This document shows positions 9,505 to 28,195 of a stretch of 64,000 bases of DNA, one piece after another. The stretch is taken from the IMG/VR virus record IMGVR_UViG_3300024259_001623; one strand, 5' to 3'. How positions within the stretch are numbered: position 1 is the stretch's first letter; each line of letters begins with the position of its first letter. A program made the translations under genes and the position numbers. This stretch comes from a virus (taxonomy: Duplodnaviria > Caudoviricetes). Below the pieces are notes generated by a model, which ran no database searches, had not been told where the DNA came from, and worked only from the letters and a program-made list of their open reading frames with translations.

Positions 9505-10086
9505 ATGAATTGGTATAAAACAGCAATAGCCGTATTAGGACCAGTAGACCCAATTGTACAACAATATCAAGAATCATATGAAAACGAGCCATACGATGTA
9601 AATATTACAGGTCCAGGCGTTAACCAAATTATTTCCATATCAGGACAAACAATATCAGCGAGAGACTTAATCAATGAAGCCGTTAAAAGAATCAGACCTC
9701 TTTTGATCCAAAACGGTGTTAGAGAAATAGATACAAGTCCTATTGGCCGCTCTGATGCTCAGGGCTTGGCTGTTTCTTCTAAACCAGGCATTGTATTTGT
9801 AGATATTCAAAAAATATTTAACTTACATCGTCAAGCACTTCCTCCCACCGCACAACTTGATGGAACTGAAATTGATCCTGATATTATTAAAGATATAATT
9901 AATAAAATCGTGCAATCTATTTCTGGAGAAATAGGAGAGACAAGCCTACATGAGAGCCAACATATGCATGATTACATGTCTGCTATTCAAGAAGGACAGC
10001 CTTTTAGCTCAGTTCAAGAAACTCCAGCACAACAGTTCGGGCAACAAATGCGTAGCCGATATTTTCCTGAAAGTTTTAATCAATAA
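9505..10086 (+). CDS. WYK-leader protein with HExxH metallopeptidase-like motif
   Basis: Start re-placed to MNWYKTAIA (ATG 9505, GGAG upstream). LHESQH near the C-terminus. Confidence 0.7.
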   Translation: MNWYKTAIAVLGPVDPIVQQYQESYENEPYDVNITGPGVNQIISISGQTISARDLINEAVKRIRPLLIQNGVREIDTSPIGRSDAQGLAVSSKPGIVFVDIQKIFNLHRQALPPTAQLDGTEIDPDIIKDIINKIVQSISGEIGETSLHESQHMHDYMSAIQEGQPFSSVQETPAQQFGQQMRSRYFPESFNQ

Positions 10087-11065
10087 AATTATTAATATTA
10101 AAATTTTCGACATTTTCTTTGTTAATATTTTTTTCAAAACCATTGTCTTTAAGAAAATCTAATATAAATGTCAAAAAGTTTTTAAGTTTTAAAAACTCAT
10201 CAGGATATAAAAGTTTAATTCCTTTTGATGAAGTTACTTTCTTTTTAATAACATCATGCTCTTGCCGTTTTAAGAATTGTTCTCTATTCTCATGGAATCT
10301 ACCTGGTATAAACTTAAAATGTTGTCTACCTTGGTACTCAAATCCTAATTTTAATTCATCATTATAGCCATCTATTTCTAGTCTATTCCCTTTTTTATTT
10401 TTTAACCATTCAGGCTTAACTTTATTAAATTTGTAACCTGTTATATATTCTAGAATTTTTCTAAATATTCTTTCTCCTTTAGATCCTAAACATGTTGGAC
10501 ACCAGTGATTCCTTTTTATGTCATGTGCGTTAATTGTCCATTGATGCCCTTTACGACATTGTACAACAAATTTAGAATAAGCATTTTTATAATCTCCAGA
10601 TACTAATATACCTTTTCTCATCTTTATAATTTTTTTTATATTTTCTATATTTCCAACATGATATTGACCTGCTACATAAGTGTTATGACAAACACGACAC
10701 CATGTTCCGCGTCTAATATGACTAAAATTAGCCTTCCAAACATGACCTTTATCACATTTCCAAATCATAAGTTCTAATGAATTTTTATATCCACTAGATA
10801 AACATTCGCCTCCCCTTTCAATAGCTGCTATCCTAGCATCTTCTAAGGTTAAGCGCTTTCTTATTCCCTCTAAACGTACTTTTTCTTTTGAACACACAGG
10901 ACACCAATGTCCTCTCTGAATTACATCTGGTACTGCGTTCCATTTATGCCCTTCTGCACATTCCCATTCGAGATGGGTCTTAGCGTTGATATATTTTTCA
11001 GAAACACATTTGCCATTTTTAAAATTAGCCAACTTATTCATATCGTATATAGTTTTTCTTTTCAT
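10076..11065 (-). CDS. Zinc-ribbon repeat protein with C-terminal PD-(D/E)XK/Vsr-like endonuclease domain (homing-endonuclease-like)
   Basis: Three WxCxxGHxWxA...WCxxC-type repeats, then LEIDGYN...FEYQGRQH. Start re-placed to ATG 11065 (GGAG RBS). Confidence 0.75.
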   Translation of the reverse strand: MKRKTIYDMNKLANFKNGKCVSEKYINAKTHLEWECAEGHKWNAVPDVIQRGHWCPVCSKEKVRLEGIRKRLTLEDARIAAIERGGECLSSGYKNSLELMIWKCDKGHVWKANFSHIRRGTWCRVCHNTYVAGQYHVGNIENIKKIIKMRKGILVSGDYKNAYSKFVVQCRKGHQWTINAHDIKRNHWCPTCLGSKGERIFRKILEYITGYKFNKVKPEWLKNKKGNRLEIDGYNDELKLGFEYQGRQHFKFIPGRFHENREQFLKRQEHDVIKKKVTSSKGIKLLYPDEFLKLKNFLTFILDFLKDNGFEKNINKENVENFNINNFID

Positions 11066-11103
11066 AAAAAGTTCTCCGAACAAAGATCAAACCATGTAGA
11101 TAT

Positions 11104-11131
11104 ATTTCTCATATTCATACAAAAATCCTTT
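11104..11131 (-). promoter_or_regulatory. Putative phage-sigma promoter AAAGG-N18-GAAAT
   Basis: Preceded by TTTATTTTTA exactly as at 9423-9437. Confidence 0.6.
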
Positions 11132-11245
11132 TAAAAATAAAAATCGACCACAACGGTCCAGGATCATTGCAATTAATAAAGAAGGGGGAATATCATATTT
11201 TATAGATAAATCGCTCTAATTACCGACAGCGGACGATGTATGCTA

Positions 11246-11893
11246 TCAGAAATGCCTAAAGTAGCCTTGTTCCTTAGTGACATCTTTTTTAGACATGAAA
11301 TCTTTAATTTGAGCAAAAGATACTGGTCTATAGTCCCAACTATCCACTCCAACATCACATGATAAAGTTCCTGGTAAACTATGTAATCCATCATGTGTGT
11401 GTCCGAATAAATGAAATTGGGAGTGATGTGAACGATCCCAAACCATCATAGCAAAATGATTTAATGTAATAGCATACTTTGTTCCATTATCATTAATTCT
11501 TAAAATATACTGATCATAGCATTTTTCAAATACGCTATAACTAATATGTCTATCATCATGGTTTCCCATAATAAAAATAATTTGACAATGGATTCTATAT
11601 CTATATTCCGCCCACGCATCTTTATCACGAGAAAAACAAAAGTCTCCCAAAATGCACAAGGTATCGTCGGGAGATACACATTTATTGATATTATCAATAA
11701 TAGTATCATCCTGTAACTTCACGGTTTCAGGGCTGATACGAATATTCCTTATTGCCTGTTCTCTAGCCTCTTTATGTTCAATCTTCTTTGCATTTTCAAA
11801 AAGAGTTTTTTCTTGTTCGTTCATAAATGGTCTGTTGCAGTGCTTGATAATATTGCCATGACCAAAATGTGTGTCAGCAGTAAACCAATACAT
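11246..11893 (-). CDS. Calcineurin-like metallophosphoesterase
   Basis: ADTHFGH, LGDF, GNHD, FGHTH, DVGVD. Confidence 0.9.
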   Translation of the reverse strand: MYWFTADTHFGHGNIIKHCNRPFMNEQEKTLFENAKKIEHKEAREQAIRNIRISPETVKLQDDTIIDNINKCVSPDDTLCILGDFCFSRDKDAWAEYRYRIHCQIIFIMGNHDDRHISYSVFEKCYDQYILRINDNGTKYAITLNHFAMMVWDRSHHSQFHLFGHTHDGLHSLPGTLSCDVGVDSWDYRPVSFAQIKDFMSKKDVTKEQGYFRHF

Positions 11894-11895
11894 AT

Positions 11896-12261
11896 TTATT
11901 CTTCCCTTTCGCTTAATTCTCTAAAATAGTTCGTATAACTCTTATGTGGAGTTTGTTCTGGATCGTTTGCCAAAACGAATTTAATATTATAAAGGATGGC
12001 AAAGGCATATGCCATACCAAAATCAAAATGACTTCCCTTACTATCTGGGTCCCACCAAGCATGAACTTCATCAGTCAATTCCATAGCATCTCTATGAGCT
12101 TGACAAATTTCATCAGCAGTTCCACTTTGATCTACATCTCTAGGAGGATAATGAACACAATAATCCCCCTTCTCAAGATTATCTACATATTCATCCATCT
12201 GCTTCTTAACATCTTCGCTGCAACCTCTAACCGGACAGATCAAATAAACCTGCTTAATCAT
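11896..12261 (-). CDS. Nucleoside 2-deoxyribosyltransferase-like protein
   Basis: VYLICPV, AMELTDEV, SKGSHFDFGMAYA (typical S/T-G-T-x-x-E-x-G-x-A-y-A). Confidence 0.6.
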   Translation of the reverse strand: MIKQVYLICPVRGCSEDVKKQMDEYVDNLEKGDYCVHYPPRDVDQSGTADEICQAHRDAMELTDEVHAWWDPDSKGSHFDFGMAYAFAILYNIKFVLANDPEQTPHKSYTNYFRELSEREE

Positions 12262-12310
12262 TTTCTTCTTCCTTTTGAAATTATATGTCTTTTGCGTCGG
12301 CGGTGCAATA

Positions 12311-12406
12311 TTAATTCTTAACTCTGGCCCGTTTTCTATTTCTTCTTTTATTGGACCCGATTTTTCTTCTTCTTCTACTCTTTTTATGTATACCTTTTCG
12401 TGACAA
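12311..12406 (-). CDS. Unannotated 31-aa Arg/Lys-rich peptide
   Basis: AAGGAG-N7-TTG start. MSRKGIHKKSRRRRKIGSNKRRNRKRARVKN (17 of 31 residues K/R). Fills an otherwise empty gap. Confidence 0.65.
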   Translation of the reverse strand: MSRKGIHKKSRRRRKIGSNKRRNRKRARVKN

Positions 12407-12430
12407 AATTATTCTCCTTTTCTAGATATA

Positions 12431-12859
12431 TTATTCATCGGCAGAAACAATGTCATATTCGTATTCATCGGTGCCGGTCCAATAAATACCTAGAGAACTA
12501 TTTTCCAGAATATTTCTTGTTATTTTAGTTCCATCAGGAAAATGTTTCTTCTCTAATGCGGATACATCAACAACTTTAGGCGAGTCTCCAGAAAAAGAAG
12601 CTATCTGTGTAGTGCTACCGTCATTATTTTCTACAGATACTATCGAAACAGTCTCAGATACTCTAACTTCTCTATGACACGATGACTGGTATAACCAGAC
12701 AGGAACTCCTATCATATAAATAGCTCCCAATAGGCCAATCAACCATGCTTTATACGTTTTATTATCATCTGTATAACGATCAAAACACGACTCTAGACCA
12801 AAAAGTGTTGCAAAAAAACATACGATCAACGACAATATTAAAACTATTTCAGGTATCAT
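12431..12859 (-). CDS. Membrane protein (2 TM + soluble tail), paralog of 12856..13293
   Basis: MIPxxxLI start, PxWL, DGSxTQxxSFS and ExSxLGIxW shared with its neighbour. Confidence 0.7.
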   Translation of the reverse strand: MIPEIVLILSLIVCFFATLFGLESCFDRYTDDNKTYKAWLIGLLGAIYMIGVPVWLYQSSCHREVRVSETVSIVSVENNDGSTTQIASFSGDSPKVVDVSALEKKHFPDGTKITRNILENSSLGIYWTGTDEYEYDIVSADE

Positions 12860-13293
12860 TTTTTCTCCTCATTATTTACAATAATTGTATATATATGATC
12901 AGTCTTATTGGCGTGAGAACTCCAACTTATTCCCAGATTACTCTCTTCAAAAGTTCCTCTCTTAACCGAACTTCCTTCTGGCAAAACTTTTCCGACCTCT
13001 TTTGACACATTATAAATCTCAGAATCAGAAAAAGAAACGACTTGCGTAATGCTTCCATCTGGACTGGTTATAGATTCAACTAGAGCGATTTCTTCTTTTA
13101 CTATTGCTCTACTATAATATGAACTACATAGCCATATAGGTGATCCAATAGCCATAATCAAACACAATGATCCACAAATTACGAATCTTTTGATCGCAAA
13201 AGGTCCATAATCACTAAAAGATGACAATGCTGCTATAAACAACCCTATACTCCCGAAAACAGCCAACATGATTAAAATAAGACTAGGTATCAT
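12856..13293 (-). CDS. Membrane protein, paralog of 12431..12859
   Basis: As above; ATGA overlap. Confidence 0.7.
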   Translation of the reverse strand: MIPSLILIMLAVFGSIGLFIAALSSFSDYGPFAIKRFVICGSLCLIMAIGSPIWLCSSYYSRAIVKEEIALVESITSPDGSITQVVSFSDSEIYNVSKEVGKVLPEGSSVKRGTFEESNLGISWSSHANKTDHIYTIIVNNEEKK

Positions 13294-13313
13294 TTTTCTC
13301 TCCTTAAAAGATT

Positions 13314-13350
13314 ATGCCTACTCCGCTATCATAAGTAACGGAGTAGGCAT
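13314..13350. terminator. 12-bp perfect stem-loop (terminator or mRNA-stabilising hairpin)
   Basis: ATGCCTACTCCG-N13-CGGAGTAGGCAT after the SPFH stop; only a weak U-tract. Confidence 0.5.
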
Positions 13351-13369
13351 CAACCTTATTTACAATACT

Positions 13370-14527
13370 TTACTCAACCTCTGGCATCTGCATCAACATC
13401 GAAGGAGCATCCGCGCCGCCCATAACGATCTTAGGCATAACTCCATCCCATTTCGACCAACGAGCTTTCTCAACTTCGATTTGCTGCATCTTCAAGAAAA
13501 TCGGGTTCTTAGCAGCCTTTTCAGCGACCTCAAGCAACTTTGCTTTACCATCAGCTTCGGCAGTAGCGATAGACAACTTAGCATCAGCCTCTCCCTCAGC
13601 TTCCTTCCTAATAGCATCTCTCTTAGCATCTGCTGCCAAAACGATTCTGTTGTTTTCGTCTTGCTGGGCGTCAAACAGATTTCTATTGATAACCTTCTGC
13701 TGTTCAGCCTTGAAGACCTCATTCAACTTCGCCTGGATATCTTTATCTCCATACTTAAAACCGCCGGACATGCCGCAAGTAGTAATGGTAATTCCGCTTT
13801 CAGAAAAATGATCAACGATATCTGCTTTTACTGCAAGAATAATCGCCAGTTTCTTAGGTCCGCTAAGAATCTTAGTTCCTTCTTCATTCAAAACTACACC
13901 TTCGGCCTTAGTTCTTTTGATAACCTTCTTGCCATTTTCATCTACAGTTTCTACTTCAAGATCTTTTCCTCTAAGCAAATCATTCAATGTATACTTAGCT
14001 GCGATTGTGCTAAAAATAGATTGAATTCTCGATCTAACTTCGGAATCCATTACATCTGCCAGACTGCTACTAGGATACTTGTATAGAAACTTAGCCGCAT
14101 TCTCTTCTTCAATCTTAGCCGTAACAGAGAAGCCTGTGGAGAACTCAATACTATCAGCAGATTCAGCCCATAATCCCTCGTTCTTACCGCTTGTTCCTCT
14201 ATCTGCATCAGCAACCCATTCTCGGCTTACAGGAGTTCTATCGACCTTGTATACTTGAACAGCCTCTCGCCATTCACCAGAATACCACATACGCCCTGTA
14301 TCATAGAAGAACTGAGGAATCTTAATACGCTTACCAGCGACTTGCAACTTCTTTAGAGCCTCTTCTGAATCGAATTTAACCGATTCGGAATCGCCATCCA
14401 TCTTGACAACGAAAGCTGTCTCGTTAGCCGCTACATCAACGTACTTATCTTCTTTGAAATCCTTACAACCGCCCAAAACTGCTACAGATACTACGACCAC
14501 AAATAACATCATCTTCCAACGTTTCAT
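13370..14527 (-). CDS. SPFH/band-7 family lipoprotein
   Basis: Signal peptide with lipobox VLGGC; SADSIEFSTGFSVTA; Ala/Glu coiled coil; WSKWDGVMP C-terminus. Confidence 0.8.
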   Translation of the reverse strand: MKRWKMMLFVVVVSVAVLGGCKDFKEDKYVDVAANETAFVVKMDGDSESVKFDSEEALKKLQVAGKRIKIPQFFYDTGRMWYSGEWREAVQVYKVDRTPVSREWVADADRGTSGKNEGLWAESADSIEFSTGFSVTAKIEEENAAKFLYKYPSSSLADVMDSEVRSRIQSIFSTIAAKYTLNDLLRGKDLEVETVDENGKKVIKRTKAEGVVLNEEGTKILSGPKKLAIILAVKADIVDHFSESGITITTCGMSGGFKYGDKDIQAKLNEVFKAEQQKVINRNLFDAQQDENNRIVLAADAKRDAIRKEAEGEADAKLSIATAEADGKAKLLEVAEKAAKNPIFLKMQQIEVEKARWSKWDGVMPKIVMGGADAPSMLMQMPEVE

Positions 14528-14553
14528 ACTTCTCTCCTTAATTAAAGTATTTT

Positions 14554-14871
14554 TTATTCAGGTTCGCATGTTGACTTAACATACTTTTTTACATGTTTGT
14601 TCCAAACGTATTGCTTGAACGTCTTTTTCCAAAACGCCACAGTAACAAGAATCAGAACAATAACTCCAACAACATCCACAATTGTTTGGTTATTGAGGAA
14701 ACTTTCTTCTGCTTCGTATTTGACTAAATCTTCATCAGTCCCATTGACCGTTTTTAGTGCGTTATCTACATTATGTATTTTCTTTGAGGCGTCGATTTGA
14801 CCGCCTATATACAGGTATCCAGATATGATGATGGATACGGTCAAAACATACAGTAAAATCCTATTAATCAT
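14554..14871 (-). CDS. Two-TM membrane protein (likely SPFH partner)
   Basis: Two hydrophobic helices directly upstream of the SPFH gene. Confidence 0.65.
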   Translation of the reverse strand: MINRILLYVLTVSIIISGYLYIGGQIDASKKIHNVDNALKTVNGTDEDLVKYEAEESFLNNQTIVDVVGVIVLILVTVAFWKKTFKQYVWNKHVKKYVKSTCEPE

Positions 14872-15095
14872 TTTATCTCCTTATCAAATGCCATTGTTAC
14901 TCTTATTTGGGTCATGTGTTCTAAAATATCACTGCACGAATCAAATATATTACCCAATAAATTATCATTTAATACTTGTATCGCTTCCGTGAAGTTTTTA
15001 GCATTATTGACAATATAAACATTATCATGTCTATTGTCAAAAAAAACGAATTGTCGTTTTCCTACGGTTGATTCATCGTTGACAATTTGTATCAT
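14868..15095 (-). CDS. Hypothetical protein
   Basis: First gene after the sigma70 promoter; GGAG RBS. Confidence 0.55.
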   Translation of the reverse strand: MIQIVNDESTVGKRQFVFFDNRHDNVYIVNNAKNFTEAIQVLNDNLLGNIFDSCSDILEHMTQIRVTMAFDKEIK

Positions 15096-15125
15096 CTTTG
15101 CTCCATCTCATGTGATTTCTGATAA

Positions 15126-15154
15126 ATTATACAGGGAGAAATAGGGAAATGCAA
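15126..15154 (-). promoter_or_regulatory. Sigma70-type promoter TTGCAT-N17-TATAAT
   Basis: -35 at 15154-15149, -10 at 15131-15126. Confidence 0.7.
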
Positions 15155-15189
15155 TTTACTTTTTTAAAATTATTTTCGCATTTTAAAAA

Positions 15190-15756
15190 TTATAAATCGG
15201 ATGTAGCTAAATACCAATTTGTATCTACTCTAACAGCATCTAAGGATATTCCTCCTAAATCAAAATATCCTACTTCATCTATATCATTTAAAGTATAAGC
15301 GCTGTCTACCATAAGCAACTCATTATCAGAATTGATAGCCAAAGGAATACCAGATACATTTGTACCTGTACTCGCCTCTCCGCTATCATCTAGTAATGCT
15401 GGAGAGTCATTAGACGAAGATGTGTTCTCACTTATGACAAAAATATTTCTTGTCATACCAGAATTTTCATATATGAAAAAATTTGAACCAAACCAAACAT
15501 ATAATTGATTTACGCTACTAACTGATGGAACCGTAAAACCAGATAATCTTACAACCATTAGGGAGAATTGTCCATTAGACATCCTAGCTAATGTTAAAGG
15601 AACACCGCCCAGGAATAATTTCTCTGTTCTGGTTATATCTATTTCGGTATCTACTGCTGGATCAGCAAATACTACTCTAACGGCATGTTTACCATTGTCA
15701 TCATCTACATAAGATGATAACATTTGGGTTCCTAAGAAAATATCTTCTATCGCCAC
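15190..15756 (-). CDS. Probable virion protein with three [LS]G[GI]xxL-type repeats
   Basis: FLGGVPLTL / VSGIPLAI / LGGISLDA. Acidic and beta-rich; last gene of the fibre operon. Confidence 0.5.
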   Translation of the reverse strand: MAIEDIFLGTQMLSSYVDDDNGKHAVRVVFADPAVDTEIDITRTEKLFLGGVPLTLARMSNGQFSLMVVRLSGFTVPSVSSVNQLYVWFGSNFFIYENSGMTRNIFVISENTSSSNDSPALLDDSGEASTGTNVSGIPLAINSDNELLMVDSAYTLNDIDEVGYFDLGGISLDAVRVDTNWYLATSDL

Positions 15757-15768
15757 AAAAAATCTCCG

Positions 15769-16311
15769 TTAAGTAATAGTCGAATTCGTTCTGTTACCAT
15801 CTGCATCGAAATCAACATTAGATGTTTCGGTGGCTCCATCTCTACCTTTCCAAGAAACATTATCGCCAGCAACAACAGAATCTCCTATCAATACTGCCAA
15901 CATCACTTCTACAGCCTTCTTCATAGAAATAACTTCTGTTCCTGTGCTGTCTGTATCTATTCCAGCGCTACTAGGATAAATATTATCAAGATCCCAATAA
16001 ACCTCATTAATAGCCAATAGTGTATCAGTCAAAGCTGGTGCACCGGCAATACGTAAATACATATACAAAGTATAGTTACCTTCTGTTACCCCGGCGTTGG
16101 TAGGAAAGGTGCCTTGATAATTATACGACCCTGCAATTTCTGTCATTACAGTATCGAAATTATCTGGCAACGCTGCCGGAGCCGCTTGCCACGTATTATC
16201 GCTAACTCTCCAATATTTACTATAATCCGCACTTTCTGGTATATTATTTTGCAAAAAGAAATATAGATTTACGCCAGTAACAGTATGTCTAAACTGAACT
16301 TCATTAGCCAT
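15769..16311 (-). CDS. Probable virion/tail-associated protein
   Basis: Thr/Asp/Gly-rich, beta-rich composition; position in the fibre operon. Confidence 0.5.
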   Translation of the reverse strand: MANEVQFRHTVTGVNLYFFLQNNIPESADYSKYWRVSDNTWQAAPAALPDNFDTVMTEIAGSYNYQGTFPTNAGVTEGNYTLYMYLRIAGAPALTDTLLAINEVYWDLDNIYPSSAGIDTDSTGTEVISMKKAVEVMLAVLIGDSVVAGDNVSWKGRDGATETSNVDFDADGNRTNSTIT

Positions 16312-16325
16312 AATTGATTATCCTA

Positions 16326-17135: not shown

Positions 17136-17161
17136 ATTATTTTCCTTTTTTGTACGAAAAA

Positions 17162-17509: not shown

Positions 17510-17556
17510 TTCATATCTCCTTGCATATTTATATTACATTATACTGTCTATTATAA

Positions 17557-19138: not shown

Positions 19139-19147
19139 TTATCAATC

Positions 19148-19200: not shown

Positions 19201-19202
19201 TA

Positions 19203-21062
19203 TTATGATGCAGCAGTAACAATTCCATTTACAACAGTCAGATTAGAAATAGCCCCAGAGAAAGAAGCCAAGCCTTGAGTACCAGCAGAATAAATTTTAC
19301 CATCACCCTGTACTCTAACGCCAGCAGCAGCCGTTCCAACCTGCAATGATAAAGCATTTGCATTAGTTCCTGGTCCAATCTGAACTGTATTATGACATTT
19401 TGCCAAAACATCAGCGGCATCAGTAAATCCTAAAGCAAAAGATCCATTACCAGTTGCACATATATATGGACTAGCTGTTTTAGCACATGAATATCCAAAA
19501 GCTATACTACCTATTCCCTTACTGATAATTCGTGAATAATAACTACAGCAAGCATTTGATACACCACCTGCAAGAGAACCATCTCCAGAAGAGTTTATAA
19601 AACCAATTGTATTTGCCGACCCAGAAACAGACTTAACAAGACCAAAAGCTAATGAAGATACACCAGAGGCATTAATTTTTGCACATCCCTGATAATGATC
19701 CCAACAATCAGCCCCGGTTGGCGATGCAGATATTGCATAAACTCTTCCGAAAGCCATTGATCCTTCGCCACAACTAGTAATACTAGATACGGTATAACAT
19801 CCAGTTGTGCAATTGGAACCACAAGCAGAATAAGCGGAACCGAATGCTTGTGATCCATTTCCTATCGCATTTATCCAACTACATGATGTATATGAGTTAG
19901 TGGAACCATGAGCCGATGAACCGACGCCTGCACTTTTGACAAAAGATAGGCTCTTCCGGCAACAATAGCTTGCAGCAGCAAGTGTACAAGAAGAAACTGA
20001 GCCTGTAGCAAAACTACCAGCACCCGCAGCAAAAATATTTCCTCTAGGATTACCACAAAAATTAGGAGTACCTGAGACTACATGACCATTAGCCATTGCC
20101 CCAAAACCAGTAGATTTGATTCCAGAAGTTGAATCAGCCGCATATACTGATGATGCTTGGCAAACACATTGAGATACATGCCCAGAAGCCGTAGATCCCT
20201 TATTAGATGCTAATATATATGAACAACAAGCATCTCCTAAAGCCTCTACCATACCTCTAGAAGAAGCTCCCTGGGCTGAAGATTTAATAGAACCCCATAT
20301 ATCATATGCAGTAAGGCTATTTTCAACTAAAACATAACCTGATGATGATGTACCAGAGTCTCGGCTCTCTATCGAACCTCTAGACTGGTAAACACTTACA
20401 ATATCTCCAAACGCGATACTTCCCCTGGCGTTAGCGTGAGTATATATATTTGAAGTAACAGCACAATTTGGACCACTACACAATGTTCCAAAAACTAATG
20501 AACCAGCCCCTTTATTATGCAAACTTGAGGCACCTGAATAATTACTACTCATTTCCGAATGTCCAAAAGTTACAGTACCAGAGCCAAAAGATGTTATCGT
20601 TGATGTTCCATCCTCATAAGCTTTTGTATATCCATTAGCAAAAGAACCCTTACCGGAAGCGTAAATGCCAGAATATGCTCCAGGTAACCCTGCACCTATA
20701 ACTCCAGTTACACAAGCCATTCCTCTAGCAAATGCACCCTTACCGCTGGCATTTATTCTTGCAAAAGAACAATATCCAGCAGGCGAATCATTAGATAATA
20801 TACCTCCAGCTATTCCTCCGCAATTTGCGGACAACAAAGTACAATCACCAGCAGAATAAACCTGACCAGATAAAAATCCTCCATCTTTAGAACTAAGCGT
20901 ATAACAACCAGAACCTGATATATTATGTATCTTATTTATATCTACCGTTGTAGCGCACATATCTGCGGCACATATTCTATATCCATTAGCGTCTAAATCT
21001 CCACCTAATTGGGGAGATGTATCATTAATAAGATCAGTATCAACTATTCTTGCCCAACCCAT
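19203..21062 (-). CDS. Tail-fibre/adhesin-like protein, Gly/Ser/Cys-rich
   Basis: N-terminal DTSPQLGGDLDANG motif seen in phage fibres; about 16 copies of an xxGxGSxAxG-like repeat (YadA/Hep-Hag-like); C-terminal LTVVNGIVT. Confidence 0.7.
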   Translation of the reverse strand: MGWARIVDTDLINDTSPQLGGDLDANGYRICAADMCATTVDINKIHNISGSGCYTLSSKDGGFLSGQVYSAGDCTLLSANCGGIAGGILSNDSPAGYCSFARINASGKGAFARGMACVTGVIGAGLPGAYSGIYASGKGSFANGYTKAYEDGTSTITSFGSGTVTFGHSEMSSNYSGASSLHNKGAGSLVFGTLCSGPNCAVTSNIYTHANARGSIAFGDIVSVYQSRGSIESRDSGTSSSGYVLVENSLTAYDIWGSIKSSAQGASSRGMVEALGDACCSYILASNKGSTASGHVSQCVCQASSVYAADSTSGIKSTGFGAMANGHVVSGTPNFCGNPRGNIFAAGAGSFATGSVSSCTLAAASYCCRKSLSFVKSAGVGSSAHGSTNSYTSCSWINAIGNGSQAFGSAYSACGSNCTTGCYTVSSITSCGEGSMAFGRVYAISASPTGADCWDHYQGCAKINASGVSSLAFGLVKSVSGSANTIGFINSSGDGSLAGGVSNACCSYYSRIISKGIGSIAFGYSCAKTASPYICATGNGSFALGFTDAADVLAKCHNTVQIGPGTNANALSLQVGTAAAGVRVQGDGKIYSAGTQGLASFSGAISNLTVVNGIVTAAS

Positions 21063-21110
21063 ATTATTTTCCTTATTTAATCTTTAAAAAGATTGTACAT
21101 ATCTCTTTTG

Positions 21111-21138
21111 GATACAAAAATAATAGTCTTATTCCTTT
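21111..21138 (-). promoter_or_regulatory. Putative phage-sigma promoter AAAGG-N18-GTATC
   Basis: Upstream of the fibre operon; same spacing as the other copies. Confidence 0.5.
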
Positions 21139-21146
21139 TTTATATT

Positions 21147-21494
21147 TTATTCTACATTTTCTACATTATCAACAACTGCTTCTTCAAAACCTCCATCATT
21201 ATTCATATCATCGTTCATAAGCATTTTTTCTGGTATATTATAGAAATTAGCTATAATTGTTTGTATATACGGAGCCAATGGTGTTACATCGCTAAGACCC
21301 AAGGATACTGCTGCTAAAGAAGCCCCATTTTGTACTGCGTTATCTAACGTATCTTTATCAGTTATCATCATCATTACGCCATTATCAAACAAAGTATTAC
21401 CTTTGTATAAGTTGACTAACCATTCTGCCATCTTTAATGATACATCATCAGTAGGAGTCTGCATTGTTTGAGATTTTTTATACCAGTTATTCAT
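21147..21494 (-). CDS. WYK-leader hypothetical protein (acidic)
   Basis: Starts MNNWYKKSQ. Confidence 0.7.
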   Translation of the reverse strand: MNNWYKKSQTMQTPTDDVSLKMAEWLVNLYKGNTLFDNGVMMMITDKDTLDNAVQNGASLAAVSLGLSDVTPLAPYIQTIIANFYNIPEKMLMNDDMNNDGGFEEAVVDNVENVE

Positions 21495-21756
21495 AATCTC
21501 TTACCTCCCATTCTGACTTTTCTTCATCAGTCATATTTTCTTCCAAAATAGGAAAAACTCTATTAAAAACTTTTAACCATATATCACTACGTCTTAAATC
21601 TCTTTTTTCTATTTTTTTAACTGCACAAATAGAATCAGTCAATCTATCAACAATCTGTTCTATATTTAAACCAGAATTACTCAACTGTTTCGCTTTGTCA
21701 TCAACATACGTTTCAAACTGATTCTTTAAAGATATTGCTTTTTTATACCAATTCAT
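21487..21756 (-). CDS. WYK-leader hypothetical protein
   Basis: Starts MNWYKKAIS. Confidence 0.7.
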   Translation of the reverse strand: MNWYKKAISLKNQFETYVDDKAKQLSNSGLNIEQIVDRLTDSICAVKKIEKRDLRRSDIWLKVFNRVFPILEENMTDEEKSEWEVRDYE

Positions 21757-22468
21757 ATCTGTATCTCTCAGGGATTATGATATCTCCTAATCCCAAAACG
21801 GTCATTAACTTTTCCCAAGAAATCTTGTAAAACCCTTTTCTGCAATAAGTTATATCTCTATTGTTATGTCTATCATTATGAGGATCAGCTAGACAAACAT
21901 ATTTTTGATCATATCCTACGCATATAACCATATGTCTTTCTGACTCTCCTAGTATAGGGTCTTGTTTATCATTTTCATTATACTTAGGTTTTCTAAATAA
22001 AACTGTCCAATTTATTGTTAATAAAACTGGATTTCTGTTATCTATATTCCTTCTTATATGATAACCAAAATTGTTATCTATAATAATTTTATTAATTCTT
22101 TGTTTTTCGCAAAGAAATTTATATAGACTATAGGCAGAACCAGAAAAATCCGCTTCCGAATCTTTTCTATATTTCTTCATCAATTCTTTTTTTATTGCAG
22201 TTTTATTTAATCTTGACCAAGTAAAATCTACTATATTAAGATCGCTAGTAACTATTGAGACTTTTTTAAATCCCAATTTATTTAATAAAATTCCTATTTC
22301 TCCGGTGTCCATCCCTTCATCTGAAAAATCGCTACTTATTTTCTTAGCTAATTTTCTAGTCAATTCATAACTTATTTCATTATTATAATAGTTGGCAACA
22401 GAAGCCGATGCAGCAACACCGCATTCCGCCATGTTTTGTTTAAATATCGTTATAGGCAAAACTCTCAT
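21743..22468 (-). CDS. C39-like (papain-fold) cysteine peptidase
   Basis: QNMAECGVAA (Q-x4-C), HMVICVGYD, ADPH: Cys-His-Asp triad. Confidence 0.75.
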   Translation of the reverse strand: MRVLPITIFKQNMAECGVAASASVANYYNNEISYELTRKLAKKISSDFSDEGMDTGEIGILLNKLGFKKVSIVTSDLNIVDFTWSRLNKTAIKKELMKKYRKDSEADFSGSAYSLYKFLCEKQRINKIIIDNNFGYHIRRNIDNRNPVLLTINWTVLFRKPKYNENDKQDPILGESERHMVICVGYDQKYVCLADPHNDRHNNRDITYCRKGFYKISWEKLMTVLGLGDIIIPERYRYELV

Positions 22469-22496
22469 TACTAAACCTCTAAACGATGACTTTTAA

Positions 22497-22524
22497 ACTT
22501 CTATTGTATACATTTACAACCTTT
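22497..22524 (-). promoter_or_regulatory. Putative phage-sigma promoter AAAGG-N18-GAAGT
   Basis: Upstream of the C39 gene and two WYK genes. Confidence 0.55.
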
Positions 22525-22539
22525 AACAAAACATTTTAT

Positions 22540-23046
22540 TTAACGAAGTTGTTTAGCTTTCTCCTTAGCCCTATAAAATAGAACCTTTAATAGCTTTTTT
22601 GCATCCTGTTCTTCGCTAAAATGATCTTCTATTATAGGCCGATAAATTTCAGATATCTCTTTCGCCTTTTTCCCCCTTAAAATCTCATAAGCCATTCCCA
22701 TAGAAAAAGCGTCTATTTCTTCTGGGTCAGCAAAATAAAAATTCTTTTCCTTCTGTCTTGTCAACCAATGATGTAATTCATGAACAACATAATGAAGACC
22801 ATTCTCAAAAAAGTCTCCTTTCTCAATTATTTTTTTATTTAAAATAATAGTTTTACTGTCCGATTGAGCCTTCTTTCCATCTAACTCTTTAACCTCAAAA
22901 GTCAAATGATCATCAACCCTGTCTAGTGGAACAGAATGTGCATTAAACATATCTACAAAAAATTTATTACTCTTTATGATCTTTTTAAGTCTAGAATTAA
23001 TATCTTTTTGAGATAGTTTAGTTTTTGCAGTAATATACCAAGTCAT
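22540..23046 (-). CDS. WYK-like-leader protein with HExxH metallopeptidase motif
   Basis: Starts MTWYITAK; VVHELHH followed by EEIDAF. Confidence 0.65.
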   Translation of the reverse strand: MTWYITAKTKLSQKDINSRLKKIIKSNKFFVDMFNAHSVPLDRVDDHLTFEVKELDGKKAQSDSKTIILNKKIIEKGDFFENGLHYVVHELHHWLTRQKEKNFYFADPEEIDAFSMGMAYEILRGKKAKEISEIYRPIIEDHFSEEQDAKKLLKVLFYRAKEKAKQLR

Positions 23047-25613
23047 TATATAATGTCCAATTTAGCTAAAGATATAGTATCTGTCAAGTCAAATGCCTTC
23101 TTAGTGCCTTTGTATTTGCTATTTGTCCATTCAACAATAATTGCATTATCCTTTAGAGAAACTATTCTTCCTTCAATTGGTTCAAAAGCTAATCCCATTA
23201 CATACCTAACTCTTTGTCCTTCCTTGTACTGAGACTGCATATCTCTATTCATCCTCACAACGCCGTGACTTCTCTCTAAGGCTGGTATTCCTTCTTCATA
23301 TCCATCATATCCTTCTGGTCCTTGACCAGAACTGGCATCAGCCTGTTTGATATTGGCTTGTTTATCTGTTTCTTTCATTTGCTGTCTCCAAAGGTTAGCA
23401 AACTGTTTCGCAATACCTTTTACCTGAACTTCCGCCTGCTCTGCGGTCATAACTCTTTGCATCCACTGCTGTTCCTTCAATGCGTCTATAATATATGTCA
23501 TGAAATGAACTGGTCTATTCCCATATCTACGTGTAGACATGATAGTAGCATTTTGTGCTACCATCTCAGGCTCAATCTCTTGAACTAGTTGTTTTATTTT
23601 TACGCCATCTATTACAGGCTTATGAACTAAATCTCCCATCTGCTCTCTATATTCTTCTATTGCCTTCAACTGGCGTTCTCTATTCTGCTTTATTTCTGCT
23701 GTCTCTGCTTCAGATAAATCTCCCTTACTCAAAGAATCTGCGTAAGCGTGATCTAATATATGCTTGTAAAACTCATTCGTTTTAGCTAAGAATTTTCCTA
23801 TAGTTTTAGGTTTCATACCAGAAAAATTATGAGGAGCCATATGATGACGAATAACAGTTTCAACAAACTTCTTTTCATGAGGCTCAAATCCCATTGAGGT
23901 CATCATACGTTTAGCGAAATCAGCAGATTCAAAATCATGCTTCATATACATCTTTCTCTCTATTGGTGTTTCGCCTCTCTGGAAAGTAGCTGGTACGCCC
24001 TGCTTATCCTTTTTACTCACTCTAACTTTAGGATTCATCTTACCAAAGTCATGAAGCATAGTTGACAACATCATCAACCCTCTTTCTTTTGCAGGGATAC
24101 CAGTTTCCTTAGCCACATCATTATAGTGTTCCATAACTTTCAAAGTATGTTCCATAAGCGTCAAATTGTGGAACGGACTTTGCTGGTCCATATCAATATC
24201 TAACCAATCTTCTGGAATTTGAAAAGCATGTCTATATAATCCAGTCTCGAATAACAATCTAGCTCCATCTACCGATCTATCGCTTTCCATGATCTTTCTG
24301 ATTTCTTTTGCTGCTCTAGATGGATGAACCTTACTTTTATATATTTTAGACAATTCAGATTCAGGATCTTTTAATGTCTTCATAACATCAATGATAGCTG
24401 GATCAATCTTAGCATTAGGATATCTAGAGTAGAACCTTAAAACTCTTAACATTCTTAATGGGTCTTCTGAAAAAGTCTTCATAGGATCTACAGGTGTTTT
24501 TAATTCCATATTCTTCAAATCTTCTTCTCCACCTACATAATCTTCTACTTGTCCAGTTTCTACATTATAATATAAAGCGTTTATTGTTAAATCTCTTCTA
24601 ACTACATCTTCTCTTACATCATTGGTTGGTGCTACGATAGGCTTTCTAGACTCTGGCGTATACTTTTCAGTTCTGAATTGTACAAATTCTATTTTATCGC
24701 CAAAAATATTAATCCCGCCAACAGAAAGATTTTCGTCTGGAGATTCTTCGGTCTTATCAACAACCTTATCTAGGCTAACCTGATATGGTTCTCCTACATT
24801 TGGTATACTATTAACTTGCGCATATTGACCGATGTATTTTGCGAAATCATATCCTGTCATATTATTGATAGCGATATCAATATCATCGCTTTCCAATCCT
24901 AACAGTTTATCTCTAACCCAACCGCCAGCTACTCTTAACTCAACATCTTTTGTTTCTGAAAAACTATTTTTTACGCTCAATAGGAAACTAAATATCTTGT
25001 TTTCTTGGTCTGTTAACTGTATTTGAGTCTCTGACTGTGCGTATTTTTTCAGGTTAAAAGACTTATTAGCTTTAGTTAATCTCATAGCTGGGATTTCAGT
25101 GATAATACTAGTTTCTATATTTGGTGTTTCATCCTTTACTATATCAAAAATCTTTTGTTTATTTTCAAAATCTTCTCTAACGAATACATGAGCTAACTCT
25201 GCTTGATCACGAGAGTCATCATCTATTATATATAAACCGCCAATATGATCACGATTAGCAGGATATCCTATCAAAATAGGATGATCCAACAAATGCTTTT
25301 TGATAAACTTTAAAGAAAATAGATATTTACTTATTGGTGGAATACCATTTTTCAATATGTGTCTTAGATCTATTACATCAGACGGGATATATACATAACC
25401 ACAGCTTCCTTCTTCGCTAAAAAGCTCTTCCAATACTAAATCTGGATAGTACATAAATTCTTCTTTTAAGTATCTGTATGATGCCAAACACTTAAATATA
25501 TCTTTAACTTCACAAGGACAAAGAGATCTATTAGAGATCTCTTGTGCCTTTTCTTTTATTTTTCTTTTATATATTAATGACATTTTATTATCTCTTTTTT
25601 CTTCCGCATCCAC
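23046..25613 (-). CDS. cca: Class II CCA-adding enzyme with HD domain and extra N- and C-terminal domains
   Basis: LRVAGGWVRDKLLG, DIDIA, RTEKY..SRKP, RRDLTINAL, EDPLRMLRVLRF, HTLKV...LHDFGK...HHM. Real start may be MSLIY (25583). Confidence 0.88.
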   Translation of the reverse strand: MDAEEKRDNKMSLIYKRKIKEKAQEISNRSLCPCEVKDIFKCLASYRYLKEEFMYYPDLVLEELFSEEGSCGYVYIPSDVIDLRHILKNGIPPISKYLFSLKFIKKHLLDHPILIGYPANRDHIGGLYIIDDDSRDQAELAHVFVREDFENKQKIFDIVKDETPNIETSIITEIPAMRLTKANKSFNLKKYAQSETQIQLTDQENKIFSFLLSVKNSFSETKDVELRVAGGWVRDKLLGLESDDIDIAINNMTGYDFAKYIGQYAQVNSIPNVGEPYQVSLDKVVDKTEESPDENLSVGGINIFGDKIEFVQFRTEKYTPESRKPIVAPTNDVREDVVRRDLTINALYYNVETGQVEDYVGGEEDLKNMELKTPVDPMKTFSEDPLRMLRVLRFYSRYPNAKIDPAIIDVMKTLKDPESELSKIYKSKVHPSRAAKEIRKIMESDRSVDGARLLFETGLYRHAFQIPEDWLDIDMDQQSPFHNLTLMEHTLKVMEHYNDVAKETGIPAKERGLMMLSTMLHDFGKMNPKVRVSKKDKQGVPATFQRGETPIERKMYMKHDFESADFAKRMMTSMGFEPHEKKFVETVIRHHMAPHNFSGMKPKTIGKFLAKTNEFYKHILDHAYADSLSKGDLSEAETAEIKQNRERQLKAIEEYREQMGDLVHKPVIDGVKIKQLVQEIEPEMVAQNATIMSTRRYGNRPVHFMTYIIDALKEQQWMQRVMTAEQAEVQVKGIAKQFANLWRQQMKETDKQANIKQADASSGQGPEGYDGYEEGIPALERSHGVVRMNRDMQSQYKEGQRVRYVMGLAFEPIEGRIVSLKDNAIIVEWTNSKYKGTKKAFDLTDTISLAKLDII

Positions 25614-25779
25614 AAGATTTTTTCTTTCTAATAGTGCTTGGTTTAACGCCTGACAACTTGGCTTCAGCAGCCATTTTCTTCAAGAATTTAATCTTTTTCT
25701 TATATTCAGGTGTAGACATAATTTTTTGCTGTCTTTTTCTTCTTGTCTTATATCTTGCATAAACACTTTTCTTAGCCAT
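25588..25779 (-). CDS. Small basic protein ending KKKSCGCGRKKR
   Basis: 63 aa, K/R-rich, AAGG RBS. Confidence 0.65.
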   Translation of the reverse strand: MAKKSVYARYKTRRKRQQKIMSTPEYKKKIKFLKKMAAEAKLSGVKPSTIRKKKSCGCGRKKR

Positions 25780-25791
25780 AGAAGTTACCTT

Positions 25792-26436
25792 TTATTGTTG
25801 TAAACCAATTTCTAAATCTCCCACGCTCTTAGAAAGGTCTTCCAATACTGACATCAATTCTCTCTTAACTTCTTCAGAAGTGCTTTTCTTAATTCTAGAA
25901 GATATAATATTTTTGAGATTCTCTATTAAAATATAAACAGGTTCCATTCTTCCTTCAATCTCATCTTGCTTATCTTCCAAACCTGTTATTGTATCACTAA
26001 TCTTTTTAATTGCATCTACGCTTCTTCTACGCTCGTCTAAGCTCAAAGGTACAGTCTCAGCAGCGATAAGAACCATTTCATTACTTAGTATAGCTATTCT
26101 TCCTTCGATAGAAGCTCTTCTATCCTGACGCATAGCAAGCCATTTCTTTAACTCACCAGAATATTCTTGTAACTTTAAAGCTCTTTCTTGCTTCTTATAA
26201 TGGATAAGTATATGATTTCTCACGGCCATATAAGAAATCTCTTCACCTTTACTTTGTAAAAACTTATGAACAATTTTCATATTGTTTAATTTGTCATATT
26301 CATCTTCGGCCTTTTGCCTGAATTTAGACTGGCAAAATTTACAATTACTTTTGTTGACTACTCCATCAAATCCATCTATGAAGTCTACAATAACGTTACA
26401 CTTTTCTGCTTTTTGTATTTCTTTCGATTCTGACAT
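25792..26436 (-). CDS. Hypothetical protein, CxxC...HxxxH zinc-finger-like plus coiled coil
   Basis: CKFC and HILIH, then a long helical region. Confidence 0.6.
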   Translation of the reverse strand: MSESKEIQKAEKCNVIVDFIDGFDGVVNKSNCKFCQSKFRQKAEDEYDKLNNMKIVHKFLQSKGEEISYMAVRNHILIHYKKQERALKLQEYSGELKKWLAMRQDRRASIEGRIAILSNEMVLIAAETVPLSLDERRRSVDAIKKISDTITGLEDKQDEIEGRMEPVYILIENLKNIISSRIKKSTSEEVKRELMSVLEDLSKSVGDLEIGLQQ

Positions 26437-26440
26437 CTCA

Positions 26441-26806
26441 TTACTTCCTTTCTTTTATCTGATTAGGCAAAAATTTCTGTACAAAATCCGACCTCTCTTG
26501 TTCCATTTCTTGAACTTTTAAGTACAATATATCAAAAGCCTGCTCACAAGCTTGAGCAAAAGCATAATAATTATCTAATGCACGATCAGCACCCATCAAC
26601 AATACCTCTTTCGCCCTTGGATGTGAAGACATTTTTTTATCATGTGCTATTTGCAAAGCAATTAATCTGGCATGAGGAGCATTTTGATAGACATATTTCT
26701 TCAAATAATTAATAATTCCAATAACTTCCTTGAAATCTTTAATCTTTGCGTTTAAGTCGTTCCTTTCTTTGAACGATTCTATTTTGGAAAGCTTATACCA
26801 GTCCAA
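26441..26806 (-). CDS. WYK-leader hypothetical protein
   Basis: Starts MDWYKLSK. Confidence 0.7.
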   Translation of the reverse strand: MDWYKLSKIESFKERNDLNAKIKDFKEVIGIINYLKKYVYQNAPHARLIALQIAHDKKMSSHPRAKEVLLMGADRALDNYYAFAQACEQAFDILYLKVQEMEQERSDFVQKFLPNQIKERK

Positions 26807-27106
26807 TTAAAATCCTCCTCTAGCCTCTGGAGGGACGTTGATGCCTCTTTCTTGGATAATCTTTAGTATGGTATGTACGTCATCTGCTCTCCATCCAGCG
26901 TCTTTGTCAACCCCTCTACCGCCTTGATCTTCTATCTCGGACTGAGCCTCATAAGCTTCTTTAGCATCCTTTAAATTGAAAATAAGCTGTTCTGGCGTCA
27001 TAGCTCTATATTTTGCTTCCTTTTCCGCGAATGGATATCCTTTGATACCATAGTTGCCATAACCAAAAGCAAATTTCTTAAATAAATCAGTCTTAATCTT
27101 TTTCAT
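26807..27106 (-). CDS. Hypothetical protein
   Basis: Starts MKKIKTDLFKKFA; AAGGAG RBS. Confidence 0.65.
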   Translation of the reverse strand: MKKIKTDLFKKFAFGYGNYGIKGYPFAEKEAKYRAMTPEQLIFNLKDAKEAYEAQSEIEDQGGRGVDKDAGWRADDVHTILKIIQERGINVPPEARGGF

Positions 27107-27761
27107 TTATATCTCCCTTACAATATTCTTTTACTGAATACAAACAAATCAATACTGCATCAGAGCGTCCATCATGACAAACATTCTTAAACATATCCTT
27201 TATAGAAGGATACATCTCAGCAACAATCTTCCTAGACATCATTTTAGCTTCTTTTTTAACTAATAGATTATTTTTGTCTATCTTTTTTTTATTATCACTT
27301 TTTTCGGTCGCATCCTTCAATTTTTTACTTATTTCACGAAGCTTCTTGTTTTCTTCTTTATATTCCTTAATTTCATCACTAATTAGTTCTGGGAAAGACT
27401 TTTTCCATCTTTGAGGAGAAACTTCAACTAAATCGAATCCCATAGATACAATTATCCCCAAATAGATTCCATATCCAAACCCGAAATTGAACATAGAAAC
27501 GTTCCCCTGTTGCTTCATAGAATGAACTTTCTCTATACAAACCAATACATTTTTATCTTCATATTCTTTGAATATGAGGGATAATTCTTCTATGTCAGGT
27601 ATTTTTTTGAATTTAGACTTGACTTTTTTATTAGGATTAGGGATTTTCTTGGTAGGCATATCATATATTTTGGGAACTCCATCAAGTTCCTCAAAAACGC
27701 ATATAGCCCCGGTTAAGCCTGGGTCAACTCCTATTACAATGTCATATTTATCTGAGTACAT
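27093..27761 (-). CDS. ruvC: RuvC-like Holliday junction resolvase with coiled-coil insertion
   Basis: IGVDPGLTGAI, CIEKV, FNFG, VSPQRWKK, DGRSDAVLI. Confidence 0.8.
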   Translation of the reverse strand: MYSDKYDIVIGVDPGLTGAICVFEELDGVPKIYDMPTKKIPNPNKKVKSKFKKIPDIEELSLIFKEYEDKNVLVCIEKVHSMKQQGNVSMFNFGFGYGIYLGIIVSMGFDLVEVSPQRWKKSFPELISDEIKEYKEENKKLREISKKLKDATEKSDNKKKIDKNNLLVKKEAKMMSRKIVAEMYPSIKDMFKNVCHDGRSDAVLICLYSVKEYCKGDINEKD

Positions 27762-27811
27762 ATAGATCCTCCGAATGTTAACTATCTATATGTACTATCG
27801 ACAGATATTAT

Positions 27812-28195
27812 CTATATTTCTTCATAAATATCTATATATTTCTGTGGTCTATTCGACAATATAGCAGCGATGACTTGATGATAACCATCTAATAAAGTTT
27901 GATTAGCAATAACAACGATTCTAGTGCTGTCCCATCTATCAATTTTGTTTTGTACTATTTGTTTTTGTTCCTCTGTAGCAAAATCATTAAATACATCTAA
28001 TACTGTATCTTCCCCCATATGCGTCTTTAAAGTTTTTAATTGATCTGAATTAGCTAAACGCACAGTAAATTTAGTATTAAAATCATCTTCACTAACAAAT
28101 TCATGCAAAGCTTCAGAAGTGTCATTCAATTCAGATTCATCATAGAAATCCGTTAATGAAACTGTTTCTGTTTGTGATTTTTTATACCAATGCAT
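27812..28195 (-). CDS. WYK-leader protein with ParB/Srx-like motif
   Basis: Start re-placed to MHWYKKSQ (ATG 28195); LLDGYHQVIAA resembles DGHHR. Confidence 0.65.
   Translation of the reverse strand: MHWYKKSQTETVSLTDFYDESELNDTSEALHEFVSEDDFNTKFTVRLANSDQLKTLKTHMGEDTVLDVFNDFATEEQKQIVQNKIDRWDSTRIVVIANQTLLDGYHQVIAAILSNRPQKYIDIYEEI

Follow-up and report, generated by a model that had tools for sequence, protein, structure and literature searches.

The 64,000-nucleotide stretch of tailed-phage DNA analysed here (Caudoviricetes; IMG/VR record IMGVR_UViG_3300024259_001623; hereafter the window) has a GC content of 33% and carries nearly all of its genes on the minus strand. The phage genome to which it belongs measures no less than 434,625 bp, the length of the longest contig with the window's proteins. 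Six of its open reading frames (ORFs), here called genes A to F (Table 1), begin with the string M-x(1-2)-W-Y-[KI], and each of these strings was found at the coordinate given for it in a first-pass annotation made from the letters of the window. This short N-terminal leader, referred to below as the tag, is the subject of the present analysis.

The enrichment of the tag at protein N-termini, which the first-pass annotation had supposed, was borne out. Six of the 93 window ORFs begin with M-x(1-2)-W-Y, compared with an expectation of 0.10, whether calculated from how often W and Y occur or from how often WY is found internally (Poisson P ~1e-9). A column permutation of the N-termini gave a mean of 0.58 and a maximum of 4 in 2,000 trials and never reached six. 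Likewise, six of the 17 WY dipeptides in the window ORFs are located at residues 3–5. Shine–Dalgarno (SD)-like boxes lie 6–9 nt upstream of the motif start in four of the six genes, namely A (GGAG), B (GGGAGG, 9 nt upstream), E (AGGAGG, 7 nt) and F (GGAG, 9 nt), and are weak for genes C and D. Because of these boxes, the motif methionine is preferred in genes A and F over the starts of the ORF track (9493 and 28210), as had been proposed.

Beyond the tag, the bodies of the six proteins are unrelated, again in keeping with the earlier claim. With the first 10 residues removed, an all-against-all BLASTP gave a best E-value of 0.02 (A against D), and in a profile comparison of gene A with the gene D family the alignment covered residues 1–8 only. 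Searches of Pfam and PHROGs assigned no family to any of the six tagged window proteins. Both annotated HExxH motifs, in genes A and D, are present; the description of gene F as ParB-like received no confirmation from Pfam or PHROGs. Two further strings had been put forward as related to the tag. FNLKKYAQ, within the CCA-adding enzyme, proved to be real and is considered below, while the N-terminus of a 99-aa protein is a weak match, bettered by an internal FNLKDAK, and the membership of this protein in the tagged set is uncertain.

Table 1. Positions of the tagged genes and of other features in the window.
Feature	Coordinates	Strand	Description
Gene A	9505..10086	+	193 aa; tag MNWYKTAI at 9505-9528; HExxH in body; internal FNLHRQAL at 9817-9840
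Gene B	21147..21494	-	115 aa, acidic; tag MNNWYKKSQ at 21468-21494
Gene C	21487..21756	-	89 aa; tag MNWYKKAI at 21733-21756
Gene D	22540..23046	-	168 aa; mini-zincin (HExxH); tag MTWYITAK at 23023-23046
Gene E	26441..26806	-	121 aa; TTG start; tag (M)DWYKLSK at 26783-26806
Gene F	27812..28195	-	127 aa, acidic; tag MHWYKKSQ at 28172-28195
CCA-adding enzyme	23046..25613	-	855 aa; FNLKKYAQ at 25035-25058
C39-like cysteine peptidase	21743-22468	-	PF13529 (39.6 bits), PF03412 (25.9 bits)
99-aa protein	26807..27106	-	N-terminus MKKIKTDLFKKFA, loose match; internal FNLKDAK at 26960-26980
Gly/Ser/Ala/Cys-rich protein	19203-21062	-	619 aa; no start tag
ORF with internal duplication	28451-28792	-	113 aa
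Small paralogue 1	12431-12859	-	two N-terminal membrane helices
Small paralogue 2	12856-13293	-	two N-terminal membrane helices

Tags of the same form are found in other huge phages. An exact-pattern scan of IMG/VR with the codons of MNWYKKA gave 28 loci, spread over 24 contigs; many of these contigs are 220–550 kb in length and several carry tandem arrays of 3–6 tagged genes. A shorter pattern occurred in 3–11 copies in each of five huge records, compared with 0–1 for a reversed control. From the scan loci 80 distinct tagged ORFs were gathered, and the resulting logo reads M1 N2 W3 Y4 K5 K6 A7 Q8, position 8 being absent from every search pattern, with information at background level beyond residue 8. 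The tagged ORFs have a median length of 139 aa and are mostly single-domain. An in-frame stop lies within 10 codons upstream in 43 of 58 distinct M-x-W-Y-K ORFs.

A distant syntenic relative of the window, G004 (547,943 bp, 33.6% GC), carries the tag on approximately 15 of its 759 ORFs, where about one would be expected. Matches in G004 were found for 38 of the 93 window ORFs, at 23–54% identity and with gene order kept. The tag is retained in orthologues: the counterpart of gene D in G004 starts MNWYKQ and that of gene E starts MNWFKIAK, and nearly all of 25 database homologues of gene D begin M-[NST]-W-[YF]-[KI]-x-[AS]-K. Synonymous codons within the tag match genome-wide usage (AAT/AAC 19:6, AAA/AAG 18:6, TAT/TAC 40:4), amino-acid replacements are of the conservative kind (K/R, Y/F, A/S), and the tag is present in genomes spanning 33–47% GC, including 39% and 47%. 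The tag is therefore selected as a peptide and not as nucleic acid.

The tag is also restricted to one clade of uncultivated huge phages. In a scan of bacterial DNA (596 Gb of genomes) with the same DNA pattern, mostly internal Sel1-repeat helices or chance sites were recovered; the few true N-terminal tags were all on short contigs of metagenome-assembled genomes, and these contigs are probably phage. When the terminase was compared by tblastn with GenBank phages, no cultivated relative and none with a virion proteome was detected, the best match being an uncultured 485-kb record at 26% identity, and a first search of viral contigs with the CCA-adding enzyme as query found no relatives. The tag motif was not mentioned in the literature searched.

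In bacteria (L082, L091, L110, L139 and about 35 other loci) the string M-N-W-Y-K-K-A-A recurs as an internal feature, the start of helix A of Sel1 repeats in the context A-x-N-W-Y-K-K-A-A-E-Q-G, and there it is a chemical look-alike of the phage tag without an N-terminal role. An interpretation of the tag itself as a Sel1-like repeat, which would form tandem units of ~36–44 aa patterned A..W[YF].KAA.QG...AQ..LG..Y..G.GV, was rejected, given that it is N-terminal, uninformative past residue 8 and shows no repeat. A Sec, Tat or lipoprotein signal peptide, in which a hydrophobic core of at least ~10 residues would precede a signal-peptidase site, was rejected likewise: the conserved part spans 8 residues, includes two lysines and has no hydrophobic stretch, and the sequence beyond it is unrelated. 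A second leader, M-K-[IL]-[IV]-[KR]-x-A-x, was observed in arrays of small genes after the capsid gene (L169:14195-16440; G003 417,786-426,510, covered by L211/L212). It is exemplified by MKIIKTAKY, which occurs four times; K5 and A7 are kept and WY is missing, which makes this leader a probable sister form of the tag.

What follows the tag is highly diverse. Tagged bodies match at least 12 different Pfam families, with domains that include AAA_33 kinases, ART-PolyVal, cREC_REC, HicA, 2H phosphoesterase, Acb1, GNAT, PolyA_pol, SLT, DUF5661 and helix-turn-helix (HTH), and a further body is a UvrD-type helicase that also contains an intein and a zinc ribbon. For ART-PolyVal, of which two members exceed the Pfam cut-off, the domain match starts at residue 11. 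For gene D, the AlphaFold2 (AF2) model has a mean predicted local distance difference test (pLDDT) score of 87.6 and shows residues 1–10 as a low-confidence short helix detached from the fold; the nearest folds of the body are the minimal zincins selecase and jannalysin, with weak E-values of ~0.1. In G004, a 713-aa protein starts MSWYKKAQ and has an internal NWYKKSQ where its last 118 residues begin, and these 118 residues are a 51%-identical paralogue of a neighbouring tagged gene. Two more internal copies of the tag were found in other contigs, and tagged genes often stand in head-to-tail arrays with overlapping stop and start codons. Taken together, the tag is a modular unit placed before many unrelated enzymes. 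Among the tagged proteins there is also a recurrent family with HTH domains typical of homing-endonuclease/invertase relatives (L053:8026-8652, in G004, and L186:19169-20436), adjoining a LAGLIDADG endonuclease just after the capsid gene.

A related motif was detected in the head modules of these phages. A family of ~400-aa head-module proteins, represented by 29 distinct relatives, has 3–4 sharply conserved islands, between which its first half shows little conservation. The islands have the consensus K-x-[FY]-N-[LW]-K-[KE]-(x)-A-[QS]. The island at about residue 100 reads K-x-[FY]-N-L-K-K-A-Q, and that at about residue 250 reads [FY]-N-L-K-K-x-A-Q-H-K and is followed by a conserved domain of ~150 aa. 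Another of the islands, K-P-[FY]-N-W-K-E-A-[SQ], lies ~10 residues before the C-terminus, and some members of the family begin M-x-F-N-L-K-K. Likewise, a small head protein adjoining the portal has an N-terminal leader of variable length, M-x-x-[FY]-N-L-x-K-x-A-G, ahead of a conserved body.

The relation between this motif and the tag was quantified with a scoring matrix (the head-site matrix) built only from internal 8-mers of the ~400-aa head family in genomes other than G004. Applied to the G004 proteome, the matrix ranked MNWYKKAQ third of 166,236 8-mers and placed four tags in the top 32, the alignment of matrix and tag being F/M, N, L/W, x, K, x, A, Q. The head modules of G002, G003 and G004 contain 12, 9 and 12 copies, respectively, of the shorter pattern phi-K-x-A-[SQT], compared with 2.5, 1.4 and 1.6 in shuffles, a 5- to 10-fold enrichment in which the observed counts were unmatched by any shuffle. 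There was no excess elsewhere (32 against 31 in the rest of G004; 5 against 4.4 in the whole window). The second half of the tag therefore shares a motif that is enriched in head-assembly proteins.

The CCA-adding enzyme of the window carries the same motif at a domain junction. It has an N-terminal extension of ~190 aa, and its FNLKKYAQ, situated just before the catalytic domain, scores higher under the head-site matrix (22.7 bits) than any other 8-mer in the window. In database homologues with such an extension, K-x-[AS]-Q is present in a 40-residue junction segment in 54 of 86 proteins, compared with 2.2 expected, and the junction Q lies 31–42 residues (mostly 35–39) ahead of GGxVRD. The particular form FNLKKYAQ is not conserved in the CCA-adding enzyme of G004, which has KKVFKKGQ at that place. 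Homologues without the extension are of two kinds. The bare kind starts M-x-I-x-L-T, a few residues beyond the junction point, and the tagged kind starts MNWYKKSQ-RIIGGH (its Q 38 residues before GGxVRD), MNWYKKLKFAD or MWYEKTIKIAQ. The N-terminal tag and the internal junction motif are thus positionally equivalent in this family, and 'MNWY' can replace the 190-residue N-terminal domain. The extension itself (residues 1–185) belongs to no Pfam family, is common to more than 80 homologues, and shows a conserved N-S-[VI]-P-G-[IL]-S a short distance ahead of the junction motif; the extension may act as a long propeptide or as a functional domain in its own right.

One distinctive head protease gene was found in all five tag-bearing huge genomes. 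Of 14 additional tag contigs, most of them 4–55% complete, 7 encode it too, and 8 more tag contigs were recovered among 38 protease loci. The protease is joined to the scaffold in a fusion protein of 1,830–2,450 aa, of which it makes up the N-terminal domain, and matches the PHROG 'head maturation protease' with E = 2.4e-10, and its top fold matches, with weak E-values, were T4 gp21 (5jbl) and the herpesvirus assemblins. The fusion begins M-[AS]-phi-x-K-x-A-[TK], with M1, K5 and A7 invariant in 26 relatives; of the 759 G004 proteins, M-x-phi-x-K-x-A fits only the protease-scaffold protein and four MNWYK proteins. Numerous copies of the strict FNLK form were not seen in the scaffold part of relatives, and the looser phi-K-x-A-[SQT] occurs in 8 copies in the G004 fusion. 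The capsid protein, of 290 aa, is highly conserved (PHROG major head protein, E = 1e-64).

Insertions were noted in the same head genes. In ~10 relatives (L184, L186-L190, L193, L195, L197; ~10,450-10,900 per locus) the protease gene has an insert at or after the GTSMG catalytic-serine motif which, with its C-F/T…VLM-x-DG…GD-x-V…LAEG pattern, looks like an intein, and in other relatives this site is occupied by a Cys-rich insert that resembles a zinc ribbon. The G004 portal (L081:958-3243) contains a DUF559/MTES_1575 endonuclease-like domain. Portal orthologues of 1,119–1,452 aa (L161, L162, L169, L170, L184-L186) are 350–700 aa longer in several relatives, which suggests that the longer genes contain inteins or other insertions.

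We give an even chance to the reading that the tag is a capsid-targeting propeptide, processed by the prohead protease and working like the capsid-targeting sequence (CTS) of phage T4. The tag is built of an 'MNWY' cap and a phi-K-x-A/S-Q junction motif, and the use of this motif in head-assembly proteins makes it most likely the recognition and cleavage site of a prohead protease, here one of the assemblin/T4-gp21 fold. Tagged proteins would be synthesized during head assembly and carried by the tag into the procapsid core, the protease would cut the tag off at or beside K-x-A|Q, and the mature enzymes would remain in the head and enter the next host together with the DNA. Such cargo would be of counter-defence and RNA-repair types, for example ART, Acb1, 2H, kinases, HicA, the mini-zincin and the CCA-adding enzyme. 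The first-pass annotation had already proposed the tag as a candidate capsid label; a modular, peptide-level signal on unrelated proteins, with an indirect tie to head assembly to which the likeness of the cargo domains to those of injected or polyvalent effectors adds, was upheld, whereas cleavage, the identity of the protease, packaging and injection are what we infer. A more ambitious proposal, which we regard as possible but rather doubtful, is that one 8-residue code serves as both address and cut site, so that dozens of separate enzymes, including ADP-ribosyltransferases, anti-CBASS (cyclic oligonucleotide-based antiphage signalling system) and 2H phosphodiesterases, kinases, a toxin, peptidases and the tRNA CCA-adding enzyme, would be loaded and released in native form in the next host.

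Several observations weigh against the capsid-targeting reading. Position 7 is S rather than A in three of the six window tags, and the tag of gene D, in which I takes the place of K5, receives a low score from the head-site matrix. The tagged genes of the window lie among replication and RNA genes and not among structural ones, and tagged genes adjoin the capsid gene only now and then (in 3 of 26 loci and also in G003 and G004), so that a systematic placement of tagged genes directly after the capsid gene was not upheld. Some tagged proteins have a predicted membrane helix directly after the tag and some are 1,190-aa helicases with inteins, and both would be unusual as head cargo. The AF2 model of the protease is poor (pLDDT 54), and the assignment of its fold relies on weak matches. 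Inside the protease, a conserved LGGFDLK-x-A string before the core was considered as an extra site, but it probably belongs to the domain itself, where its role may be structural. Finally, the presence of the tagged proteins in virions and their cleavage are predictions from sequence, all members of the clade being uncultivated.

The conserved junction just before the natural N-terminus of the CCA-adding enzyme, together with the internal copies at fusion points, would also suit a cytoplasmic processing site for a phage or host protease, with the tag and the extensions as removable zymogen-like or timing caps and nothing packaged. The C39-like and mini-zincin peptidase genes adjoin the CCA gene both in the window and in G004, the three forming a trio that is conserved in five other contigs as well. 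Each of these two peptidases, however, is encoded in only one of the five tag-bearing huge genomes, and on this ground the C39-like enzyme was rejected as the processor of the tag and the tagged mini-zincin as its universal processor; a double-glycine leader/C39 system, in which a leader of 15–30 aa would end in GG/GA, was likewise rejected, the tag having no GG. The sole tested protease common to all five genomes is the prohead protease, and the motif is enriched specifically in head-module proteins, not in the remaining proteome, which leaves cytoplasmic processing unlikely in our estimate. We judge it similarly improbable that the tag is an uncleaved docking peptide, a short amphipathic helix that binds a hub such as the scaffold or portal, a chaperone or a membrane surface. 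A helix would place W3, Y4 and A7 on one face and K5 and K6 on the opposite one, W-Y-K-K would suit interfacial or helix-groove binding, and the AF2 model of gene D has residues 3–9 as a short detached helix. The WYKKA string also begins helix A of the bacterial Sel1 repeats, and several tagged proteins have their membrane helix right behind the tag. Eight residues are nevertheless very short for stable binding. The copies between domains, like the head-protein site ~10 aa before the C-terminus, more closely resemble cleavage sites, and the small, polar positions 7–8 resemble P1/P1' of assemblin sites (PMC4498786).

A signal for degradation or turnover, for example by a Clp-type unfoldase, would give the tagged proteins a shared short lifetime, and these are indeed small accessory genes. 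The motif is short and N-terminal, and its polar-aromatic-aromatic-basic pattern presumably resembles the N-terminal recognition motifs of ClpX. This explanation seems to us very unlikely, as it leaves unexplained both the enrichment in head proteins and the motif at the N-terminus of the protease, and as conserved internal copies would not serve as N-terminal degrons. Least credible of all is that the conservation resides in the nucleic acid, as a translation-initiation or regulatory RNA element or as recombination microhomology for the shuffling of cassettes, with the peptide as a by-product. The DNA of the tag is A-rich and nearly identical between some genes, and the overlapping stop and start codons of the arrays would fit such a role. 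Against this stand the genome-wide proportions in which the synonymous codons vary, the conservative protein-level substitutions, the retention of the tag in genomes of widely different GC content, and its retention at an internal position in the 51%-identical paralogue.

Other genes of the window were noted in passing. Directly downstream of genes B and C is a protein of 619 aa, very rich in Gly, Ser, Ala and Cys, that has the appearance of a fibre or surface protein. In a 113-aa ORF the sequence K-A-x-E-P-E-V-L-S-x-E-K-E-V-N-E-F-L-V-G-T-K-F-M is present twice, in near-identical copies of ~24 aa each. The two small membrane-helix paralogues are adjacent, and after them stands a 385-aa SPFH/band-7-like protein with a lipoprotein-like start.

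If the capsid-targeting reading is correct, the injected proteins of huge phages could be listed by a simple rule applied to their sequences, so that the genome alone would reveal the set for an uncultivated phage; so far, identifying injected counter-defence and host-takeover factors has required a phage in culture and the proteomics of its virions. An assemblin-like protease that is unstudied and fused to a giant scaffold would also have its cleavage code defined. RNA-repair enzymes, the CCA-adding enzyme among them, would seem to reach the new host as finished proteins, and a very short tag would become available with which to load foreign proteins into large capsids. Even without packaging, the data show a short linear motif common to head proteins and accessory enzymes across a clade seen in metagenomes only.

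Among known systems, the cargo-loading peptides of encapsulins offer one parallel, in which a short conserved terminal peptide sends unrelated enzymes into an HK97-fold shell. Those peptides are C-terminal, uncleaved and belong to bacterial compartments, not virions, whereas the tag is N-terminal on phage proteins. With the polyvalent proteins (Iyer et al., 2017; PMC5512222) the tagged set shares a repertoire of ART-PolyVal, helicase, metallopeptidase-like and other conflict-type domains. Polyvalent proteins are single giant fused polypeptides, unlike the mostly separate small tagged genes, in which occasional fusions keep the tag as a linker; given the length and mostly single-domain make-up of the tagged ORFs, their classification as polyvalent proteins was rejected, with only the domain repertoire overlapping.

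In phage P1 (DarB) and in phiKZ and SPN3US, N-terminal regions send large effectors into the head (PMC9024508, PMC7411985), and the prohead protease of SPN3US removes long propeptides from head and ejection proteins (PMC7411985), to which the ~190-aa extension of the CCA-adding enzyme would be the counterpart. The signals of these phages comprise 30–130 residues and, unlike the tag, have no short consensus common to many proteins. Herpesvirus assemblin resembles the phage protease in being fused to scaffold, and the fold search weakly indicates the same fold. The shape of the site is also alike, the assemblin sites being YLQA-T and VQA-S, and so is the occurrence of a site near the C-terminus of an assembly protein (PMC4498786). 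The putative phage site differs in its conserved Lys two positions before Ala and in the Q that commonly follows, and cargo tagging is not described in the assemblin literature used.

The closest parallel is the CTS of T4, an N-terminal propeptide of ~10–20 aa on IPI-III and Alt which directs these proteins into the prohead core and is removed by gp21 (PMC7411985, PMC3012670). Like the CTS, the tag is a short N-terminal peptide common to diverse and partly counter-defence proteins of one phage (PMC7411985, PMC3012670), as seen in six ORFs of the window and 15 of G004, and a prohead protease of gp21/assemblin type accompanies it in all five huge genomes and in half of the 14 mostly fragmentary contigs. 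The T4 CTS ends in a motif at which head and scaffold proteins are likewise cut by the prohead protease; in the huge phages the motif of the tag recurs in head-module proteins and at the N-terminus of the protease, and it may be a cleavage site there. The putative code is K-x-A/S-Q, in contrast to L/I-x-E in T4, there are many more tagged genes per genome (at least 15 in G004), and the protease is part of a giant fusion with the scaffold. A label of the CTS type is thus already known, and what is new is the code itself, the much larger cargo set and the comparative evidence in the CCA family for a connection between the tag and a junction motif.

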